Assembly: GCA_043807885.1 (NCBI GenBank)
Contig: JAZDFN010000019.1
Span: 1-48,301 of the forward strand
Direction: 5' to 3'
Length of the DNA: 48,301 bases
Source of the DNA: a bacterium
GTDB lineage: Bacteria > Patescibacteriota > Patescibacteriia > UBA2591 > JAZDFN01
In this document: positions 593 to 39,465 of the stretch, one piece after another
Layout: each line of letters opens with the position of its first letter
How positions within the stretch are numbered: position 1 is the first letter of the stretch
Program-made: the position numbers and the translations under genes
The notes under the pieces: generated by a model
The model's database searches: none
What the model was told of the DNA's origin: nothing
Seen by the model: only the letters and a program-made list of their open reading frames with translations

Positions 593-644
593 TTTATTAA
601 TTATCCTAGATTCCCGCTCCCCGATCGGAGTCGAGGACAAGTTT

Positions 645-680
645 CGCCTGCCTTGCCTGATAGCGGTCAAGGCGGGCGGG
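645..680. repeat. GC-rich imperfect hairpin directly 5' of the giant ORF; copy of a GC-rich element also present at the tRNA-Pro locus
   Basis: CGCCTGCCTTG (645-655) pairs with CAAGGCGGGCG (668-678, one G-U). GTCAAGGCGGGCGGG (666-680) is the exact reverse complement of CCCGCCCGCCTTGAC at 39289-39303. Confidence 0.6.
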
Positions 681-681
681 A

Positions 682-3600
682 ATGACAGATTTAATGGCAA
701 ATAAAAATAAAAAACTTTTTTTCGTCTGGCTGCCAATGATTTTGGCCGGGTTTGTTTTTTCCGCCCTGCCGGCTTGGGGCGCGGATTTTGGTTTGAGCCA
801 AATTGGCAATGCCATTGGTCTGGGGGGCGATGACCCGCGGGTGATGATCGCCCGCATCATCAACATCGCTTTGGGGTTTCTGGGCGTCATTGCTTTGGGG
901 TTTGTCCTTTATGCCGGCTTCCTTTGGCTGACTTCGGCCGGCGACGAGGAGAAGATAAACAAGGCCAAGAAAATTTTGATCAGCGCGGTCGTTGGCTTGG
1001 CCATCATTCTTTCCGCTTGGGGCATCACTTTGTTTGTTTTGCAAAAATTGGGCGCGGTCACCGGCGTTAACATCAACGGGGGCGGCGACGACAATGGCGA
1101 CGGCAACGGACCGCCGGCCAGCGCTTTGTTGGTCAAGAGTATTACGCCCCAAGGCGAAGTCCAGATTTGCAATCCGGTGGCGAGGATAAAGTTCAACAAG
1201 AGCATTGATCCCAATACGGTTGAAGGCAATATCATCATCAGCGCCAACAGCTCCGCCGGCTGGCGGACGATTGCCGGCACTTTGAAAATTGACGGCGCTT
1301 GGGTGGAGTTTAGGCCGAACAGCGATTGCCCGGCGCCTTATGGCGACAAGAAATGCTGGCAGTTCAATGATGACCCGACGACGGAATATTCAATCAATGT
1401 TTCTAACGGCGTTAAAGCCGCCGATGGCAGTTCTCTCTGGTGCGGTATCGGCTATGAATGCAATGGCAGTTTCACGATTTTGCAGGGCTGTTTTGTCGAC
1501 GCCAGCAGTCCGATTGTCCGAATGACCTATCCTTTTAACGGCCAGCCGATTTGCAGCGATGGCACCGCTGTCAAAGCCTTAGCTAAAGACGATACAGGCA
1601 TTGGCCGGGTGGATTTTTATGTGGACAATAATTATTTGGACGGCGACGCGCCAAGCGAAGCCAATTCAGAATCTTTTGAAGCCGAGGTTTGGTGGGAAAC
1701 CGGCGGATTGGCCATTGGTTCCAGCCACAAGCTGAAGGCCCAAGCTTTTGATTTGGATGACAATAACGCCTGGTCGAAAGAAACGTCGGTTAAGATTTTT
1801 CCGGCCCATTGCTGCAATGGTGTCCAAGACAGCGGCGAAACCGGAATTGATTGCGGCGGCGAATGCCTGGCTTGCACAGGCGATGATTGCGACAGCGGCG
1901 ATGATAATTTGGATACTTGCGTCCAGCCCGATCATCAGCAATGTATCTCCCAGTATTGCCGGGCGGACAATTGTTCCTGCTTGGCCCTGCCTTTGATTAC
2001 AGATGTCAATCCGATGGATGGCGCTTTCGGCAACTTGATTACGATTTGGGGCCAGGATTTTGGCCAAGAAGCGGGCAAAGTAATATTTTTAGGCGGAGAC
2101 GAAAATGAAAATTGTCTGGGTCTGGCGCCGAAGTCGGTTAACAGCGCTTGTACTGATTATTGGCAAAATGACCAAATTATCATCGTGGTACCCAGTTGCG
2201 GCCAGACCGGACCGATAAAGGTAGTGACGAATGTCGGCTTGTATGACCGGACTGATGATTGGCGCGGGCCGGATTTGGGCGATTTTGAAATCAATGATAT
2301 TGTCCGGCCGGGCCTTTGCTTGTTGGATCCCAGCCAAGGCCGTTTTAATGATGCCATTACTTTGCAAGGCATTAATTTTGGCGCCCAAGCCAAGCAGGTT
2401 TGGTTCGGCAATCCCTTGGGCAAAAACAAAATTAAAGCCCAGGCAATCAATAATTGGTCTAACCAGACCATTACGGCAGTCGTGCCCAATTTGAAATCCG
2501 GCAAAGTGCCGGTCTACGCGGAAGCTTTTAGCGGGCAATTCAGCAATGGCGTTAATTTTAAAGTCAGCTCAACCGACGCTGGTCAGAAAACACCCTGTGA
2601 CAGCAACCCGGGCACCAGCCAGTGCGATGCTGATAGCGACTTGTGTCCGGCTGGCGAATTTTGTGATTCAAATACTTGTTTGTGCGCAGTCGGCGATGGC
2701 AATGACGGGAATCCGCCAGCCGGCGGAGAATATTGCGACGCTGATGCCAATAATCCTGGCTGCCAAACCGATGTTAATTTATGTTCAACGGCCAAGCCCT
2801 TCTGCGACCAATTGTCCTGCGAGTGCCAGCCCTATCAGGACTGCAGTTATGTTTGGTCTTTTACTACGGCCGAAAGGACGCTTTGCGACAGTGATTCGGC
2901 CAACCCCGGCTGTCAGGCGGACCGCAACCTTTGCGCCGAAGGCGAAGAATGCCGGGAAGATTGTTTTTGCTATGCCGAAGAAACCCCGCCGACTCCGCCC
3001 GACGGCGAAGTCGAATACTGCGACAGCGACGCCCAAAATCCGGGTTGCCAAGCCGACGCGGATATGTGTTCGGCGGAACAGCCTTTCTGCGACCAATTGT
3101 CTTGTGAGTGCCAGCCCTATCAGAGTTGTAAATATGTCTGGACTTTCAAAACCGGCAGTCCTTTCGTCATTGAAGAATGCGTTGATTACAACAAAGAAGG
3201 CGCGCCTTCGCCCAGCCCCACGCCTTGGAGCAAAGTGAGCAGTAATGTTTGCATTAATGTTCTGGTTTCCGCCCGCTTCAGTGAGCCGGTGGATGAACAG
3301 TCGGTAAAGAACAACGTCAAAGTCCAGATTGACTGTTCCGGCGCCAAATCAGAAGCCGATTGTCCGGCTGAAGGCGATGGTTGTTATTGGGCCAACAGCC
3401 AGTGCGTTTCCCAGCCGTTGGCCGGCTATGTCCATGTCTATGAATGGGATACGGACAACCATTACGGCGCTTTTAAGTTCTACAAAGGAGTTATTAATTC
3501 TAGCGACCGGAGCGAAAATTATTTGCCTAACACTAAATACCAAGTCACTTTGATTGGCGGGCCCAATGGCATCAAAACCAAGGCCGGCGTGCCTTTGATT

Positions 3601-6600
3601 GACGACTATATCTGGTCATTTCAAACTCGGGATTCCAACCAGCTTTGCAAGTTGGACAAAGTGAAAGTGGTGCCGTTTAATGCCAAACTGGTCATCAAGG
3701 ACGCTTTGCAGAATTATTTAGGTGAAACCTACACCAAAGAAGATTCTTGCTTACTGCTTAATTCTGACAGCTATGATTGGGATTGGTGGTCGGAAGACGC
3801 AAGCAAAGGTAAGATTGACGATCAGGATAGCGATCCGAAAAACAGCAAGAACAATGTTCGGGCGGTTGGCGAATCTCCTTCGCCGATCAAGATCTATGCC
3901 CGCATTGAGTCGGAGAAAAAAGAAGGCTATGGCAATTTGATTATTGAGTTTGCCAATTTCGTGCTTTTGAAGCATTGGCCTTGCGGAGACGCCAATGGTC
4001 AGAACGTTTGTCCTAATGCTTTGATCGGCGCTGAATTCAACCGCCAAGTTGACCGGAAATCTTTCGGCGTCAATGAAAGCGACGGGTCGGTTAGTGGCGA
4101 CAGCATCCAAATTTATTCTTGCGACAAAGGGTCTGACTGCAACTTGAACATCTTGCCTTTCAGTAAAGGCAGTAATTGGGATAGAGAACAAAACTTGCGC
4201 GCTGATTTCTTTTTTGACGCCGGCACGGGCAATGAAGAAATCAATGTTTCCACGACGCCGTCGCTTTTGAAGATCGGCAATTATTACCGCATTATTTTCA
4301 AAGATAACAGCCAAGGCATCAAAAATTATTTGGGTGAAGAACTGGACAATCCCAACTATGACAGCGCTCGGGGCGAAGAGTGCGAAGGGGAGAGCGCTAT
4401 TTGCAAAAATTGTCTGAACCAAGGTTTGACTGTCGCTTGTTCGGAAACAACCAAAACCAATTGTTGCGGGGACAAGATCAAGGAGCCGGGCGAAGATTGC
4501 GACGATGGCAACAACTATCCGGGCGACGGCTGTTCCAATGTTTGTTTGAACGAAGGCTCTAATTTCAAAAATCAATGCGGCAATGGCAATGACCAGGATT
4601 TGGGCGAAGATCCGGGTTGCGACACGGCCAATGGTATTTTCTCGGGTTGCAACGATCATTGCGTTTTCAAGGGCTCTTTTGCTCCGGCGATTTGCGGGGA
4701 CGGCGTTGTTGACAAAGCTCATGGCGAAGAATGCGACCAGAAAGGCCAAGCCACTAATGGCGACGGCTGTTCTGGCAAGTGCTTGTTCGAGGGTATTATC
4801 AAAAATGAAGAAGGAGAAGAAGATCCAACCAAATCAACCAAAGAATGCGAACCCAACACCCAAGGCTGTGATGCCAAGGGCGTGCATCTGGGCACTTTGC
4901 CCAAGGTAACCTGCGGGAACGGCAAGATTGAAATTGGCGAAGATTGCGATGATGGTAATACGATTAAAGGCGACGGTTGTTCTGATTTCTGTCTGAATGA
5001 AGGTTCAAACAAGTTCTGGGGCAGTACTTGTGGCAACAAGGTCGTGGAAGGCCCGGAACTGGACAGTTATTCCTGGTATTTCAGGGTCAAAGAAACTCCC
5101 GGTCTCTGCCAATTGTCTAGCGTTGATGTCAAACCGGAGAAAATGACCGCTGAAGTCAATGAAACAATCAATTATCAGGCCGACGCTTATGGCGAAACTG
5201 ATGTTTGCGAGCCCAAAGGCCAGAAATTAAGGCCGGAAGATTATCTTTGGAATTGGTGGTCGGGCGACGCGAAAAAAGCGGTTGTTAATCCTTCAAGCAA
5301 TAATCAAACTGCGGTAATGACCATCGCGGAAACGGGCGATACTCCGGTTAAAGTTTTTGCTTCAGTTAAAGATAAATCCGGCGATAACGCCAAAAATGAT
5401 TTCGGCGAATTGTCCATTGTCGGCCAAGGCATCAAAGGCGGGGAATTGTGCGAGGCAAAAAAACCGAATTATCAATATAATCCCGATGCTCCGGCTGTTT
5501 GCCCGGTGGAAGTGCCGGATTGCGGTCCGGTTGAGATTTATCAGTGTTTGGTCGGTGATACTACCGGTGATGTTTGCAAAACTTATGATGATTGCCCTCG
5601 TTGTTGCTGTGAACCCAAGAAAAAATACAAGAACTTGACTTGTGAGCCAGACCAGGATGAATGCACTGGCTCAACCCGGGGCCTTTATTGCGGTTGCCAA
5701 AAAGACCTTGATTGCACCGAGGTTTATGGCGATAAATACGGCTGCGGATTTAGCGACCCGGCCAAATGCTGCCATCCTCGGCCGTGGATTACTGATTGCG
5801 ACCCGACTTTGGAGTTTACCGGCGTTCAATCGAGCGAAGATACTTGGTGCAAGAGCGGCAATAATAATTTCTGCCCCAATGGCTTAATCAAGGTTTATTT
5901 CGACCAAGTAATCAAACCCGAATCACTGGCCAACAATAATTTTGCAGTGGTTACTCGGTTAATCACCAAAGACGACGGAGAGTGTCCTAAAGGGACGATT
6001 CCGACCGGCCAGATTGATTTAGCTTTTAATAATTCTGAAGAAAATGGTTTTTTTAGCCGGGCTTTGGGCGCCCTGAATGATGGTTTGAATAAATTGTTTG
6101 GTCGTGAGGCCAAAGCGGAAATGGTTGAATTTTGCCAAGTAACCGGCGATATTTACGCTTATCAGTTGTCGGCCAAAGATGAAACAACCGAAGAAGTTAA
6201 ATATTTTACGGAAGCGATTTTCAGCCCTGATGAGAATTTGGAGTTCAGTCGGGTTTATTATGCTTTGGTGGCCGGTGATGATTTAGGAACAGGCGATGAG
6301 GGCGAGGGCGTGGTCAGCATTAAGGGTGTGGGTATGGATTTAAAAGAATCATCCAATGGCGGATGGGTGCCGGCCGGTCAAAAATCAGGCAACAACTTTT
6401 TTTGGTCATTCACGACCAAGGCCGATTTTTGTCCGATTGATCGCGTCAATGTTTACATTAACGGTAATGAAAAGCCGGCGATTTCCGATTTGTTCAATTG
6501 CACCAAGGATGATTGCCCCGACGACTTTAGCCAAAGCAAAACCGGCAACCAGCATCATTACTATGCCGAAGCGTTAGACAAGGACGGCCAAGAAATTAAA

Positions 6601-7995
6601 GCTGATTTTAAGTGGCAGGAGATTGATGCCGGTGGAGCGATTGAGGTAGGGGAGGTAGATACTGACCAACCCGACCAGAAAATAAGATATATTACGGCCA
6701 ATCCCAAAGAAGACGCCCAGGCCTATCTGGATGTTATTGCCAGCGAGGACTTTGCCAACAGCACGGCCAACCAGCTGATTGACGTCCGGGTTTTTGACTG
6801 CGCCAATCCTTGGCCGGCTTTGCCGGATGATATTTATTCTTGGCAGCCGTGGCAGGACGATGTTACCAATTTTCAATTTTATTACTGCCGCGACCGAGGC
6901 GCGATTGGCACAAGTGATGATTTACCGGCCTTGGCTAATCCGCCAGTCATTGTCAATGGTACGGGTGAAATCTTAAAAGAATTTCTTTTTGCTGTTTTAG
7001 ATAGCGACGTGGTTGGTTTCCGAGTTTTGAAAAATGCCGGCAAAAACCAAAAAATTTGTTCCAATGATTGCCAAAAGAGCTGCCTTGACGATACTGAGTG
7101 CAGTGGCGGTTATTGCCTCCGGCAATTTGCTCATTTATCACCTGGACTTTGGTATACTTTCCCTTGCAATGTGCCGGACCCGGGCAGTCCCCAGTCATTG
7201 GAAGTTGACGGCTACAAAGCCGTGCGCGATGGCCGGACAACTTATGCTTCCGCGGCCAATTCCACGCCCGCTGAAATTTTCACCAATATCTATCTGGTTT
7301 CTTACAATGAAGGCGCCAAGGCCGATACCCAAACCATCTACAACCAGATTCTTGGCCATTGGCATTTTAATACCAATTTGGATGATTATCGCGCCTGCCG
7401 GGATGCTGACGGCGAATTGTTGACTTTCGTGCCTTGCGATAATGATTTGGTTTGCCAACCATTGGGTTATTGCGACGCTCGGAAAACCAAAATTACCCGC
7501 GATACCATCCGCTTGGGCGATTTGAATGATCTGGCGCATCTTTTGGAGGCCTATTACAAAAAGAAAGAAGCCAAAGAAGGCCAGGGCGATTATCCGGCCT
7601 TGGCTGGCGGCAGTTATATTAAGGGCTTGTCCACCAGCAAATGGCCGATTTCTTGGGGTTTAACTTTGAAAGGCGAATTAGGCAAGGATTTGCCTCTTGA
7701 CCCGCTTAATCTTTTTGGCGCGGATTGCTCGTTAAAAGACGGTTATGAGGCCTCAACTTGCTGGAATGAAACCAAAAAAGATTTTTATTTGTCGCCTTAT
7801 TCCGATATTTATATTTATAAATATTTTCCCCTGACAACATCAGCGCCGGTGAATTACCATCTCTGTGCGGAATTGGAGTTTAGAGGAGATGGTTTTGGCT
7901 TGCATAATATGGCTGACCAGTGGTTCGGCTTGCCCGATTCCGCGGTTTGGGACTATAAACAGCTTAAATTCGGCCTTAGCCAATGCTATCCTTAA
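682..7995 (+). CDS. Giant (2437 aa) Cys-rich cell-surface protein with N-terminal TrbC/VirB2-like (T4SS_pilin-type) membrane head, Ig-like/IPT-TIG-like domains and Cys-rich repeats
   Basis: Uninterrupted 7.3 kb ORF. The N-terminus has a signal-like segment plus two hydrophobic helices around LYAGFLWLTSAGDEEKINKAKK. IPT/TIG-like segments: ITDVNPMDGAFGNLITIWGQDFG and LLDPSQGRFNDAITLQGINFG. Also CCNGVQDSGETGIDCGGEC, CDxDxxNPGCQxD modules and CGxGxxExGExCDDGNxxxGDGCSxxC repeats. Alternative start ATG 694 (MANKNKK). Confidence 0.85.
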   Translation: MTDLMANKNKKLFFVWLPMILAGFVFSALPAWGADFGLSQIGNAIGLGGDDPRVMIARIINIALGFLGVIALGFVLYAGFLWLTSAGDEEKINKAKKILISAVVGLAIILSAWGITLFVLQKLGAVTGVNINGGGDDNGDGNGPPASALLVKSITPQGEVQICNPVARIKFNKSIDPNTVEGNIIISANSSAGWRTIAGTLKIDGAWVEFRPNSDCPAPYGDKKCWQFNDDPTTEYSINVSNGVKAADGSSLWCGIGYECNGSFTILQGCFVDASSPIVRMTYPFNGQPICSDGTAVKALAKDDTGIGRVDFYVDNNYLDGDAPSEANSESFEAEVWWETGGLAIGSSHKLKAQAFDLDDNNAWSKETSVKIFPAHCCNGVQDSGETGIDCGGECLACTGDDCDSGDDNLDTCVQPDHQQCISQYCRADNCSCLALPLITDVNPMDGAFGNLITIWGQDFGQEAGKVIFLGGDENENCLGLAPKSVNSACTDYWQNDQIIIVVPSCGQTGPIKVVTNVGLYDRTDDWRGPDLGDFEINDIVRPGLCLLDPSQGRFNDAITLQGINFGAQAKQVWFGNPLGKNKIKAQAINNWSNQTITAVVPNLKSGKVPVYAEAFSGQFSNGVNFKVSSTDAGQKTPCDSNPGTSQCDADSDLCPAGEFCDSNTCLCAVGDGNDGNPPAGGEYCDADANNPGCQTDVNLCSTAKPFCDQLSCECQPYQDCSYVWSFTTAERTLCDSDSANPGCQADRNLCAEGEECREDCFCYAEETPPTPPDGEVEYCDSDAQNPGCQADADMCSAEQPFCDQLSCECQPYQSCKYVWTFKTGSPFVIEECVDYNKEGAPSPSPTPWSKVSSNVCINVLVSARFSEPVDEQSVKNNVKVQIDCSGAKSEADCPAEGDGCYWANSQCVSQPLAGYVHVYEWDTDNHYGAFKFYKGVINSSDRSENYLPNTKYQVTLIGGPNGIKTKAGVPLIDDYIWSFQTRDSNQLCKLDKVKVVPFNAKLVIKDALQNYLGETYTKEDSCLLLNSDSYDWDWWSEDASKGKIDDQDSDPKNSKNNVRAVGESPSPIKIYARIESEKKEGYGNLIIEFANFVLLKHWPCGDANGQNVCPNALIGAEFNRQVDRKSFGVNESDGSVSGDSIQIYSCDKGSDCNLNILPFSKGSNWDREQNLRADFFFDAGTGNEEINVSTTPSLLKIGNYYRIIFKDNSQGIKNYLGEELDNPNYDSARGEECEGESAICKNCLNQGLTVACSETTKTNCCGDKIKEPGEDCDDGNNYPGDGCSNVCLNEGSNFKNQCGNGNDQDLGEDPGCDTANGIFSGCNDHCVFKGSFAPAICGDGVVDKAHGEECDQKGQATNGDGCSGKCLFEGIIKNEEGEEDPTKSTKECEPNTQGCDAKGVHLGTLPKVTCGNGKIEIGEDCDDGNTIKGDGCSDFCLNEGSNKFWGSTCGNKVVEGPELDSYSWYFRVKETPGLCQLSSVDVKPEKMTAEVNETINYQADAYGETDVCEPKGQKLRPEDYLWNWWSGDAKKAVVNPSSNNQTAVMTIAETGDTPVKVFASVKDKSGDNAKNDFGELSIVGQGIKGGELCEAKKPNYQYNPDAPAVCPVEVPDCGPVEIYQCLVGDTTGDVCKTYDDCPRCCCEPKKKYKNLTCEPDQDECTGSTRGLYCGCQKDLDCTEVYGDKYGCGFSDPAKCCHPRPWITDCDPTLEFTGVQSSEDTWCKSGNNNFCPNGLIKVYFDQVIKPESLANNNFAVVTRLITKDDGECPKGTIPTGQIDLAFNNSEENGFFSRALGALNDGLNKLFGREAKAEMVEFCQVTGDIYAYQLSAKDETTEEVKYFTEAIFSPDENLEFSRVYYALVAGDDLGTGDEGEGVVSIKGVGMDLKESSNGGWVPAGQKSGNNFFWSFTTKADFCPIDRVNVYINGNEKPAISDLFNCTKDDCPDDFSQSKTGNQHHYYAEALDKDGQEIKADFKWQEIDAGGAIEVGEVDTDQPDQKIRYITANPKEDAQAYLDVIASEDFANSTANQLIDVRVFDCANPWPALPDDIYSWQPWQDDVTNFQFYYCRDRGAIGTSDDLPALANPPVIVNGTGEILKEFLFAVLDSDVVGFRVLKNAGKNQKICSNDCQKSCLDDTECSGGYCLRQFAHLSPGLWYTFPCNVPDPGSPQSLEVDGYKAVRDGRTTYASAANSTPAEIFTNIYLVSYNEGAKADTQTIYNQILGHWHFNTNLDDYRACRDADGELLTFVPCDNDLVCQPLGYCDARKTKITRDTIRLGDLNDLAHLLEAYYKKKEAKEGQGDYPALAGGSYIKGLSTSKWPISWGLTLKGELGKDLPLDPLNLFGADCSLKDGYEASTCWNETKKDFYLSPYSDIYIYKYFPLTTSAPVNYHLCAELEFRGDGFGLHNMADQWFGLPDSAVWDYKQLKFGLSQCYP
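2593..3153 (+). repeat. Four tandem Cys-knot-like coding modules inside the giant ORF (two are close copies)
   Basis: EYCDADANNPGCQTDVNLCSTAKPFCDQLSCECQPYQDCSYVWSFTT (2728-2868) versus EYCDSDAQNPGCQADADMCSAEQPFCDQLSCECQPYQSCKYVWTFKT (3013-3153). More diverged modules PCDSNPGTSQCDADSDLCPAGEFC and LCDSDSANPGCQADRNLCAEGEEC. Confidence 0.8.
4462..5004 (+). repeat. Cys-rich CGxG...DCDDGN..GDGCS..C repeats (myxococcal cysteine-rich repeat / DUF4215-like) inside the giant ORF
   Basis: CCGDKIKEPGEDCDDGNNYPGDGCSNVCLNEG; CGDGVVDKAHGEECDQKGQATNGDGCSGKCLFEG; CGNGKIEIGEDCDDGNTIKGDGCSDFCLNEG; one degenerate copy CGNGNDQDLGEDPGCD... Confidence 0.7.
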
Positions 7996-17310: not shown

Positions 17311-17474
17311 TGGTTCAAATCTCCTGATTTGAACCATTATGTTCTATCCGTCGGTTCAATTCTCTGAATTGAATCGCATTGAGAGACGCAAAATTTTGCG
17401 TCTCTAGGGGTTTGGGTCAGGAGACCCAAACCAAAATCGCAGAACATTAAGGTTCAGGTCAGGAGACCTGAACC
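17311..17474. repeat. Array of five 24-nt hairpins between convergent htrA and glnA; four belong to one family with covarying stems
   Basis: 17312-17335 GGTTCAAATC-TCCT-GATTTGAACC. 17353-17375 GGTTCAATTC-TCT-GAATTGAATC. 17382-17405 perfect palindrome AGAGACGCAAAATTTTGCGTCTCT. 17409-17432 GGTTTGGGTC-AGGA-GACCCAAACC. 17451-17474 GGTTCAGGTC-AGGA-GACCTGAACC. Confidence 0.85.
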
Positions 17475-33713: not shown

Positions 33714-34577
33714 ATGGCGGAACAAAATCAACAAGCCCGCCGTGACTCACCTGCCGGCGAGGCAGGCGAGCAGGCGAGGCAGGCCGAAATCGGGATTTTT
33801 GGCGGTTCGGGTTTTTATGATTTGCTGGAAAATTTACAGGAAGCTGAAATTGAAACTGAATACGGCCGGCCGAGCGACAAAATAATGCTGGGAGAATACC
33901 AGGGCAAAAAAATCTCGTTTTTGGCGCGGCATGGCCGGAATCATAATTTGCCGCCTCATCAGATAAATTACCGGGCCAATATCATGGCTTTCAAAAAATT
34001 GGGCGTGACCAGGATTATCGCCCCCTGCGCCGCCGGTTCGCTCCAGCCGAATATCAAGCCCGGCGATTTCGTGGCCTGCGCTCAATTTGTTGATCGGACC
34101 CGTAACCGGGTTGATTCTTTTTTCAACGGCCCGCAAGTGGCCCACATTGCCGGCGCCGACCCCTATTGCCCGCAACTGTCCCGATTAGCCATTGAGACAG
34201 CGAATAATTTAGGCATTAAGATCCATCCGTCAGGCACGGTGGTCGTGATCAACGGCCCGCGTTTTTCCACCCGGGCGGAAAGCCGTTGGTTTTCCCAACA
34301 GGGCTGGGAAGTAATTAACATGACCCAGTATCCGGAAGCGATTTTGGCCCGGGAAGCGGAGATTTGTTATACCGGCATTGCCTTGATTACCGATTTTGAC
34401 GCCGGTTTGGAAGGGATGCAGGATATTCCGCCAGTGACCATTGAAGAGGTCTTGAAAGTGTTTAAGGCCAATAACGAAAAAGCCAAGCAATTGATTTTGG
34501 CAATGACAACCGCGATGCCGGAGAACAGGGAGTGTCAATGCGCCAGCGCTTTAGCCGGAGCGATTATCTCAAAATAA
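33714..34577 (+). CDS. mtnP: S-methyl-5'-thioadenosine phosphorylase (PNP family)
   Basis: IGIFGGSGFYDL, FLARHGRNHNLPPHQINYRANI, INMTQYPEA. 25-aa charged N-terminal extension. Confidence 0.85.
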   Translation: MAEQNQQARRDSPAGEAGEQARQAEIGIFGGSGFYDLLENLQEAEIETEYGRPSDKIMLGEYQGKKISFLARHGRNHNLPPHQINYRANIMAFKKLGVTRIIAPCAAGSLQPNIKPGDFVACAQFVDRTRNRVDSFFNGPQVAHIAGADPYCPQLSRLAIETANNLGIKIHPSGTVVVINGPRFSTRAESRWFSQQGWEVINMTQYPEAILAREAEICYTGIALITDFDAGLEGMQDIPPVTIEEVLKVFKANNEKAKQLILAMTTAMPENRECQCASALAGAIISK

Positions 34578-39197: not shown

Positions 39198-39245
39198 TAA
39201 TCTCTGCTAAGCTGGTAGATATTGAAATTATCGGGGTGTCGCCTG

Positions 39246-39260
39246 TCCGCCTTGGGCGGA
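39246..39260. repeat. GC-rich micro-hairpin inserted in the D-stem of the outer tRNA copy
   Basis: TCCGCC-TTG-GGCGGA. Confidence 0.8.
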
Positions 39261-39306
39261 TATACCGGTAGTACGCATGCATGGGGTGCCCGCCCGCCTT
39301 GACTGC

Positions 39307-39377
39307 CGGGGTGTCGTATACCGGTAGTACGCATGCATGGGGTGCATGTAGACGGAGTTCAATTCTCCGCACCCCGA
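39307..39377 (+). tRNA. tRNA-Pro, anticodon GGG (CCA not encoded)
   Basis: Hand fold. Acceptor CGGGGTG/CACCCCG plus A73. U8. D-arm GTAT-ACCGGTA-GTAC. Anticodon arm CATGC-AT[GGG]GT-GCATG. 4-nt variable loop TAGA. T-arm CGGAG-TTCAATT-CTCCG. The C1-G72/A73 combination is typical of bacterial tRNA-Pro. Confidence 0.85.
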
Positions 39378-39413
39378 TAGTCAAGGCAGTCGGGCGGGCA
39401 TGTAGACCGGGTT

Positions 39414-39443
39414 TCCGCCCGTGGCGGACCCGCCTTGGGCGGG
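39414..39443. repeat. Two adjacent GC-rich micro-hairpins replacing the 5' T-stem of the outer tRNA copy
   Basis: TCCGCC-CGT-GGCGGA (39414-39428) and CCCGCC-TTG-GGCGGG (39429-39443). Confidence 0.8.
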
Positions 39444-39465
39444 CAATTCTCCGCACCCCGAAAAT

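Follow-up and report, generated by a model that had tools for sequence, protein, structure and literature searches.

The closest described counterparts of the outer hairpin treated here are the Neisseria Transformation Sequence (NTS), a hairpin motif with the consensus CGTCATTCCCGCGMAVGCGGGAATCYRG, and the wider set of Ssn-related motifs (SRM), which follow the degenerate pattern HGTCWYN(0-2)YYVSBRHN(0-5)WNVSBRGN(0-2)RNCYNB (Nat Commun 2025, PMC11893778). Such hairpins flank the gene of SsnA, a single-domain GIY-YIG protein of 94 aa that cuts the motif as single-stranded DNA (ssDNA), also when the loop is extended (PMC11893778). Patescibacteria are not mentioned in that paper (PMC11893778). 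A second point of comparison is offered by the Rickettsia palindromic elements, hairpins of 100-150 nt that lie in frame in protein genes, in several frames, and also in RNA genes, and that are tolerated there as extra loops. Here, we analyze positions 589-689 of the window, by which we mean the whole 48,301-nucleotide contig JAZDFN010000019.1 (C19) of a 622-kb patescibacterial assembly (G000, GCA_043807885.1; 92% complete, genome 46% GC). These positions lie in the spacer between an open reading frame (ORF) and a giant gene for a surface protein. An earlier note on the window, made from its letters alone, had taken 608-684 for a second, cargo-less copy of the GC helix of a tRNA-Pro locus, accompanied by a stub of the tRNA 3' end. 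We consider it probable that 589-689 is instead nested selfish palindromic DNA whose effects on the giant gene are incidental.

The repeat matches for 589-689 are based on a short-word BLAST search of 560-720 against the whole 622-kb assembly. They assign the outer layer to a repeat that we call Fam1, a double hairpin of about 82 nt (TGTCATTCCCGCGAAAGCGGGAATCCAC, about 26 nt, GTGGATTCCCGCTTTCGCGGGAATGACA) with about nine full copies. Its ends are 28-nt inverted hairpins, and in its small size, inverted ends and multiple copies it resembles the MITEs (miniature inverted-repeat transposable elements). Positions 589-607 on the plus strand, overlapping the stop codon (590-592) of the upstream ORF, are a remnant of the AT-rich Fam1 middle segment; 589-618 matches C30:3555-3584 at 27 of 30 bases, and that stretch of contig C30 comprises the middle and the right hairpin arm of a full copy. 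Upstream of 589 the left terminal inverted repeat is not recognisable (15/30 by eye). One NTS-like arm, assigned to the minus strand, lies at 606-617 and reads CTAGATTCCCGC on the plus strand and GCGGGAATCTAG on the minus strand, which is the 3' arm and tail of the motif; extended by one base to CTAGATTCCCGCT (606-618) it is an exact 13-mer copy of the repeat arm C42:4149-4137. The other arm with its conserved flank, also on the minus strand, lies at 676-689 and reads GCGGGAATGACAGA on the plus and TCTGTCATTCCCGC on the minus strand. Exact 12-14-mer copies of GCGGGAATGACAG(A) from this interval are found at about 20 places in the genome, and the interval overlaps the last 5 nt (GCGGG) of the GC hairpin described below. 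The outer layer is the middle and one terminal hairpin of this MITE-like repeat, placed in the spacer that separates the ORF from the giant gene.

The Fam1 hairpin agrees with the NTS at 26-27 of 28 positions. All 16 matches to the SRM pattern in the genome are Fam1 hairpins, compared with 1.4 +/- 1.7 in ten first-order Markov resamples, and 12 genomic sites lie within two mismatches of the NTS. The window copy fits NTS and SRM only after removal of its 58-nt insert: with the insert swapped for the 4-nt loop of the family, its minus strand reads TGTCATTCCCGCGAAAGCGGGAATCTAG, one mismatch from the NTS, and as it stands it is an interrupted member. The outer hairpin is an NTS/SRM look-alike of the form GTCATTCCCGC-loop-GCGGGAATC on the minus strand, and in the predicted fold of 604-692 as minus-strand ssDNA the NTS-like stem closes around two inner hairpins. 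Like the NTS, dRS3 and SRM hairpins, Fam1 is multi-copy and forms inverted pairs reminiscent of NTS-gene-NTS units. Unlike them, its pairs enclose 26 nt and no gene, its host belongs to the Patescibacteria, and the window copy carries a 58-nt branched insert instead of a loop. Searches of other genomes covered 54 of the order and 401 of the class, each with reversed-pattern controls. The Fam1 hairpin was found in 6 of the 54, and the controls gave 0 in 55 genomes.

Fam1 hairpins occupy 18 loci in the genome, and since 14 of these have the normal 4-nt loop they can be used as paralogous empty sites. In an alignment (A1) with four full Fam1 copies both arms of the window copy are invariant and its insert stands against a 54-column gap. 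The interrupted hairpin, ATTCCCGC...GCGGGAAT, spans 610-683 with 58 nt between the arms. The 4-nt loop would have been replaced by these 58 nt, which comprise a filler of 18 nt and a short copy, lacking an interior, of a second repeat, the GC-helix family. The filler (618-635) holds a mini-palindrome, CTCC-CCGATC-GGAG at 617-630, that folds as a small stem in the predicted structures. The GC-helix copy (636-681, plus strand) is recognised by its fold, by its right end and by 33/36 identity to C41:17579-17614, its closest sister in the assembly, which lies within an ORF. Its 5' lead GGACAAGTTT occupies 636-644, its left arm CGCCTGCCTTGCC 645-657, its loop 658-664 and its right arm GGTCAAGGCGGGCGGG 665-680; the right arm is the conserved right end of the family. 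The lead motif GAACAAGTTTC also precedes the element in a Parcubacteria metagenome-assembled genome (MAG), JACPHD01 (loci L063 and L078), and matches GGACAAGTTTC at 636-646. The pairing of an imperfect left arm with the right arm, described in the earlier note, was borne out: as RNA, 642-681 folds with -26.7 kcal/mol, a value that none of 200 shuffles equalled (z = -4.87). As DNA the hairpin has -13.4 kcal/mol on the plus and -11.1 kcal/mol on the minus strand. A recurrent T in the left arm makes a G-U pair on one strand only, so that one strand folds better, in the window copy the plus strand.

The proposed connection to the tRNA-Pro locus was examined at each of its sequence ties. The 15-mer GTCAAGGCGGGCGGG at 666-680 (plus strand) indeed matches the reverse complement of 39289-39303 exactly, and the second arm at the tRNA-Pro locus, 39380-39394, is a copy with 2 mismatches. 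The word is not private to that locus: the 622-kb assembly holds 5 exact copies and 11 with at most one mismatch, and it is common equally to sites on C26, C41 and C42, none of them at a tRNA gene. Looser arm patterns, CCGCCTGCCTCGC-N-GTCAAGGCGGGC, retrieve roughly 25-30 hairpins in the genome. The window copy is a family member of interior-less form, as the words 'cargo-less copy' implied; a specific tie of 608-684 to the tRNA locus did not hold up, given a family dispersed in roughly 25-30 copies, mostly within ORFs or intergenic sequence, and a nearest sister inside an ORF. The word GATAG does occur at both 659-663 and 39376-39380, yet the closest sister on C41 has GACGG there, and the sharing is, as the letters read, a chance 5-mer. 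For the supposed stub at 608-625 the earlier count of 15 of 18 columns has to be corrected to 15 matches over 19 columns with one gap. At an edit distance of 4 or less the window contains 3 further matches of this quality, compared with 1.5 +/- 1.1 in dinucleotide shuffles, which is chance level. Thirteen of its bases are the exact copy of the NTS-like arm, and because 606-618 is such a copy and pairs with 676-689, the stub is the inner arm of the outer hairpin and not tRNA; we therefore rejected a tRNA-Pro 3' stub.

The GC-helix family has the conserved ends CCYGCCCGACT(TC)GCCTTGAC ... GGC(GA)AGTCAAGGCGGGCGGG and was observed in three forms. Bare hairpins of 38-39 nt (form 1) are seen in several other genomes. 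Units of 105-117 nt (form 2) carry an AT-rich interior of about 63-75 nt that varies between subfamilies and is common to the copies within a genome, sometimes across genomes. In form 3 the interior is a tRNA gene, and the size rises up to 124 nt, or 184 nt for the Leu form. A scan for the long form through one genome per species, 185,579 GTDB species in all, yielded 37 loci, all of them in MAGs of Patescibacteria, also called the Candidate Phyla Radiation (CPR). Their hosts are Parcubacteria, Doudna-, Kuenen-, Falkow-, Buchanan- and Tagabacteria, Paceibacterota and some labelled Saccharibacteria. The 15-mer is present in 6 of the 54 other genomes of the order (reversed-pattern control 0), and the family in 14 of the 401 genomes of the class (reversed controls 0). 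With regard to phages as a vector, an 18-mer turned up in only 2 IMG/VR contigs. Literature searches found no published description of the GC-helix family or of such elements in Patescibacteria. One MAG, CAYWOB01 (loci L069-L090), has at least 10 long-form copies that share an interior of about 65 nt with a covarying hairpin (AGG..CCT / GGG..CCC) and AT-rich flanks of the TCATTTTGATTTTTGA type, and a Doudnabacteria MAG (L068) has the same interior subfamily.

Most GC-helix hairpins of the genome lie inside long ORFs, where two sense frames, one giving PPASRQGGP-like and one GLPRGKAG-like peptides, and a single antisense frame are represented; at least 15 copies fall within ORFs of 120 aa or more. 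Relative to the genes, 11 copies have the same and 6 the opposite orientation. The occurrence in ORFs in several frames is the signature of DNA insertions that are tolerated in coding sequence. In PilB, for instance, the hairpin encodes NPPASPSQDGLADG within a segment of 37 residues, and a solved PilB has 13 residues there. The window itself contains a further short GC-helix-type hairpin at 33736-33767 (minus strand), which lies antisense within the opening codons of ORF 33714-34577.

The ends of the element can pair in two registers, A+C and A+B, which leave bulges of 6 and 5 nt, respectively. Over 16 distinct copies the A+C register is 96.7% paired, compared with 30-48% when the partner is slid, and there are two compensated pairs. 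Helix B persists despite T-A replacements and, in the forms that bear tRNA-Pro, despite the loss of 2 nt from each side in matching positions (ACTGCC/GGCAGT). The long member in the window (39287-39400, minus strand; ends GCCCGCCCGACTGCCTTGAC ... GGCAGTCAAGGCGGGCGGGC) encloses a tRNA-Pro(GGG) at 39307-39377 (plus strand) and sits inside a relic of the same tRNA. This locus at 39.3 kb is an example of the third form, and membership in one family would be the whole link between it and the site at 589-689. As cargo the elements carry tRNAs for Pro-GGG, Pro-CGG, Ile-GAT, Ile-TAT and Leu-CAA, always in one orientation relative to the ends. Each of these tRNAs has on its two sides the halves of a diverged tRNA of its own kind; at all four Ile loci the 5' half stops at the second anticodon base. 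Among about 39 family copies, 12 lie within 300 nt of a tRNA gene, and the chance estimate is a few per cent. Only 28 tRNA genes were located in the 92%-complete assembly. The AT-rich interiors gave no more tRNA hits with ARAGORN at relaxed thresholds than the shuffled-control rate, and at the 11 short-form loci around which hidden tRNAs were sought, none was restored when the hairpin was cut out with a slop of +/-3 nt. GC mini-hairpins are also found in the relic tRNA-Pro itself (39233-39461), with TCCGCCTTGGGCGGA in the D loop and TCCGCCCGTGGCGGA and CCCGCCTTGGGCGGG in the T loop. The inner tRNA-Pro(GGG) was found by ARAGORN and is absent from the RF00005 search listing of the genome. At C27:3320-3400, just upstream of an intact tRNA-Leu(CAG), the D loop of a tRNA 5' fragment, GCGGGGATGTGGCGGAATTG[CCCGCCCGCTTCGCCTTGCGAAGCAAGGCGGGCGGG]GCAGAC, holds a GC-helix hairpin.

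The nesting seen at 589-689 recurs elsewhere. On C26 another Fam1 hairpin has a 114-nt long-form GC-helix element in its loop and still keeps the loop sequence TTTC, and a Fam1 hairpin loop on C6 is filled by a 17-nt GC mini-hairpin. An SRM hairpin upstream of the nuclease gene on C7 has the tip CCTGCCACAGGCAGG. In JACPHD01, GC hairpins fill two SRM hairpin loops (L078 and L080), and four composite units (L061, L063, L078 and L080) consist of an SRM hairpin, about 26 nt, a 107-nt GC-helix element and a second SRM hairpin. The flanks of these composites differ between copies, so that they look like a mobile unit made of both repeat types. Two of the about 30 GC-helix copies of our genome fall within the roughly 72 nt of Fam1 loop sequence in the 622-kb assembly; by our arithmetic this is far from chance, and the targeting would be non-random. 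The GC-helix element may have entered as DNA with a preference for single-stranded loops, namely those of tRNA genes and of NTS-like hairpins. We tentatively suggest, as a possible though doubtful extension of these data, that the GC helix is a Patescibacteria-specific, structure-seeking mini mobile element that lands in the loops of hairpin DNA, namely the D and anticodon loops of tRNA genes and the loops of NTS-like hairpins, and that can take along a whole tRNA gene. Among insertions into essential tRNA genes, those would survive whose cargo stands in for the broken gene. If this is true, the copy at 636-681, lying in a loop that is not a tRNA loop, would show that the target is structure and not tRNA sequence.

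The gene downstream (694-7995, plus strand) encodes a giant surface protein headed by a type IV secretion system (T4SS) pilin domain (PF18895) and followed by Ig-like domains. In the collection's gene call it has 2433 aa and starts at ATG 694, which is 12 nt after the hairpin and has an AT-rich leader. The ATG at 682-684 (plus strand) is within the repeat arm GGGAATGACA and is probably not a start codon; its equivalent occurs in every Fam1 copy with no gene behind it. ATG 694 is likely the start of the giant gene. In this genome GGAGG precedes only about 3% of heuristically assigned starts and leaders have 25-30% GC; a paralogue of the giant gene on C17 has an 18-nt AT-rich leader that lacks a Shine-Dalgarno (SD) sequence. 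Since the start is at 694 and SD sites are rare, the hairpin covers no required SD site, and the idea that it occludes the ribosome-binding site, which had been built on ATG 682 or 694, is at best weakly supported. If the region is transcribed, a hairpin 12 nt upstream of the start could hinder 30S loading or stop 3' exonucleases. The effect on the giant gene would then be a by-product, in which initiation is dampened or the 3' end of the upstream transcript is stabilised. No intrinsic terminator was found at 640-700, where the hairpin is followed by AATGACAGATTTAATGG and no T-run, and a promoter scan gave no promoter-like site at the element. The TTGAC in the left end was rejected as a promoter, its spacing to -10-like hexamers being inconsistent across copies (by eye). 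Rfam returned no significant family, the best match reaching 19.9 bits against a gathering score of 130.

Other origins of the stretch can be weighed against nested selfish DNA. The earlier idea of a second attachment-type site, derived from the tRNA-Pro locus and keeping its helix and a tRNA 3' stub, can point to the exact 15-mer shared with that locus, to a stub matching in 15 of 19 columns within about 40 nt of the helix, and to the enrichment of the family near tRNA genes (12/~39). With the stub explained as an NTS-like arm and its tRNA match at chance level, and with the same 15-mer in C26, C41 and C42 away from tRNA genes and a sister copy in an ORF, we regard such an origin as very improbable indeed. 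Selection as a cis-regulatory leader would have the hairpin throttle translation of the giant gene or protect the 3' end of the upstream mRNA. Some REP and Correia elements do throttle translation or protect mRNA 3' ends, and a strong hairpin ending 12 nt before ATG 694 stands out in a genome whose leaders are normally AT-rich and unstructured; the G-U pair, moreover, favours the sense-strand fold (-13.4 vs -11.1 kcal/mol as DNA). The paralogue manages with a plain 18-nt AT-rich leader, however, the family occurs in all contexts and in both orientations (11 same, 6 opposite), the absence of a T-run speaks against a terminator, and no promoter was found, which leaves a selected leader quite unlikely. 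We would assign similarly little probability to the NTS-like hairpin being a working target of an Ssn-type nuclease that marks the border of a surface gene, with the insert tolerated as loop identity is irrelevant. Neisseria NTS clusters border variable genes, and the 97-aa single-domain GIY-YIG protein of this genome is flanked by related GTCATTC...GAATCC hairpins. Cutting survives loop extensions (PMC11893778), and the minus-strand fold of the window copy still closes the NTS-like stem. Against this, the hairpins beside the local nuclease gene are of a different subtype and membership of the protein in cd10448 (Ssn clade) is putative, only one copy of the motif and no cluster lies at the giant gene, and cutting of the site is a prediction.

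Several observations weigh against nested insertion as we propose it. One set fits a different history, in which a composite unit of SRM hairpin, middle, GC-helix element and SRM hairpin was reduced by deletion or recombination between GCGGG repeats and no loop insertion took place. The four JACPHD01 composites have the GC-helix element between two SRM hairpins, two of these copies share the lead motif with 636-646, and the junction ...GGCGGGCGGG|AATGACAG could stem from a deletion between two GCGGG words. The arm at 606-617 is, in contrast, oriented as the inner arm of the 676-689 hairpin and not as a left-hand hairpin, and C26 shows a clean loop insertion with TTTC kept; a deletion history appears unlikely to us, less so than a selected leader or a nuclease target. 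The best homologue of the giant protein is 41-43% identical, and a DNA search in 40 relatives found only pilin-head similarity. As there is no close relative, no orthologous empty site or insertion polymorphism proves mobility here. No direct repeats that would be target-site duplications are evident at the flanks, and the 18-nt filler, for which no significant repeat was found elsewhere in the genome, is an unexplained part. No transposase tied to the GC-helix family was seen, nor does any gene family recur beside the 73 element loci; a small GIY-YIG ORF lies within about 600 nt of the element at only 2 loci and is not enclosed by its ends, and the genome has no match to the integrase PF00589 or to PF07282 (TnpB-type). 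A RAYT-like ORF does exist at C18:3049-3549 (minus strand; 166 aa; HLHLIV; YIHDNPIKRDYV..WYWSS), with 79.9 bits to NF047646 at a cut-off of 80. Its flanks, GGTTCAAATC(TCC/AGG)TGATTTGAACC and GGTTCAGGTC..GACCTGAACC, are hairpins of the type GGTT-N4-TC...GA-N4-AACC and not GC helices. As the same family forms five tandem hairpins at 17311-17474, these are most likely the REP sequences of the RAYT. That short and long forms of the GC helix are one family is our judgement from their shared arms and not from a full-length alignment, and any effect on expression depends on the region being transcribed.

Nested selfish DNA, as preferred here, invites comparison with other mobile palindromes. With the Rickettsia elements the GC-helix hairpins have in common their in-frame position in protein genes, in several frames, their presence in RNA genes and their toleration as extra loops. 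They differ in length (about 25-45 nt), in their richness in GC against a genomic 46%, in the existence of long forms with cargo and in the phylum, which is unrelated; as neither size nor sequence is related to the Rickettsia elements, we see an analogy and not a membership. With MITEs, repetitive extragenic palindromic (REP) sequences and bacterial interspersed mosaic elements they share small size, palindromic structure, non-autonomy, multiple copies and nesting, and a RAYT is encoded in the genome. The RAYT, however, goes with another hairpin family, and no target-site duplications, GTAG-type head or partner enzyme were seen. Mobile tRNA introns and split tRNAs of archaea (Thermoproteales, Nanoarchaeum) likewise have GC-rich helices at D-loop and anticodon positions that join tRNA halves. 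Here the host is a bacterium, the copies that are interrupted are relics in decay, and the insert contains a complete spare tRNA. An archaeal-type tRNA intron was rejected: the splicing endonuclease PF01974 was not found in the 92%-complete genome, and the junctions are continuous helices with no bulge-helix-bulge. Integrative elements that insert into tRNA genes and restore them offer a further parallel, in that they disrupt the tRNA and preserve its function through sequence of their own; the unit here, in contrast, is only about 115 nt long, has no PF00589 match and carries the whole tRNA instead of its 3' part. Integron attC sites were rejected as well, with cores of CCTTGAC/GTCAAGG against RYYYAAC...GTTRRRY and no tyrosine recombinase match.

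Three small GIY-YIG ORFs are present in the genome, on C7, C6 and C53. In a possible parallel to SsnA, one small GIY-YIG gene is flanked by related hairpins; in this genome these are of another subtype. The ORF at C7:6581-6796 (97 aa; 60 bits to PF01541) has on both flanks hairpins of the form GTCATTCTGGAGC...GATAGAATCC, which are related to Fam1 hairpins and differ in subtype, and this family counts 33 copies with exchangeable tips of 13-44 nt. At C6:27100-27520 a 90-aa GIY-YIG ORF (MYYVYII...) has on one side a tRNA-Ser 5' relic, made up of GGAGGGGTGGCTGA and then three GC mini-hairpins, and on the other an intact tRNA-Ser(GCT), into which the ORF runs. The ORF at C53:300-700, of the MYYVY type, lies inside a perfect 17-bp inverted repeat (CCCTCCCAACTTTTTGG) that directly precedes an apparent RNase P RNA (GGAGGGAGGAAAGTCCG...), itself bearing a TCCGCCCAAGGCGGA mini-hairpin. 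With about 45 copies, TCCGCC(A/G)GCTGGCGGA and variants of it are the most over-represented GC-rich 11-mers of the genome; A/T runs often border them on either side, and these words could be bidirectional terminators or uptake-type sequences. The last roughly 100 nt of C26 are the reverse complement of the last roughly 100 nt of C40 and lie inside the GC-helix element nested in a Fam1 hairpin, so that the assembly appears to break at the repeat.

The copy before the giant gene is thus to be read as ordinary selfish DNA, and not as a tRNA relic or a designed leader. Ultra-small CPR genomes, usually seen as streamlined, hold several interlocking families of hairpin repeats. One of these families is NTS/Ssn-like, and another, with conserved ends, can bring tRNA genes into disrupted copies of the corresponding tRNA. 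If structure targeting is true, it would explain how such elements colonise essential single-copy RNA genes without killing the cell, and why short GC-rich inserts often upset the prediction of tRNAs and ORFs in these genomes.

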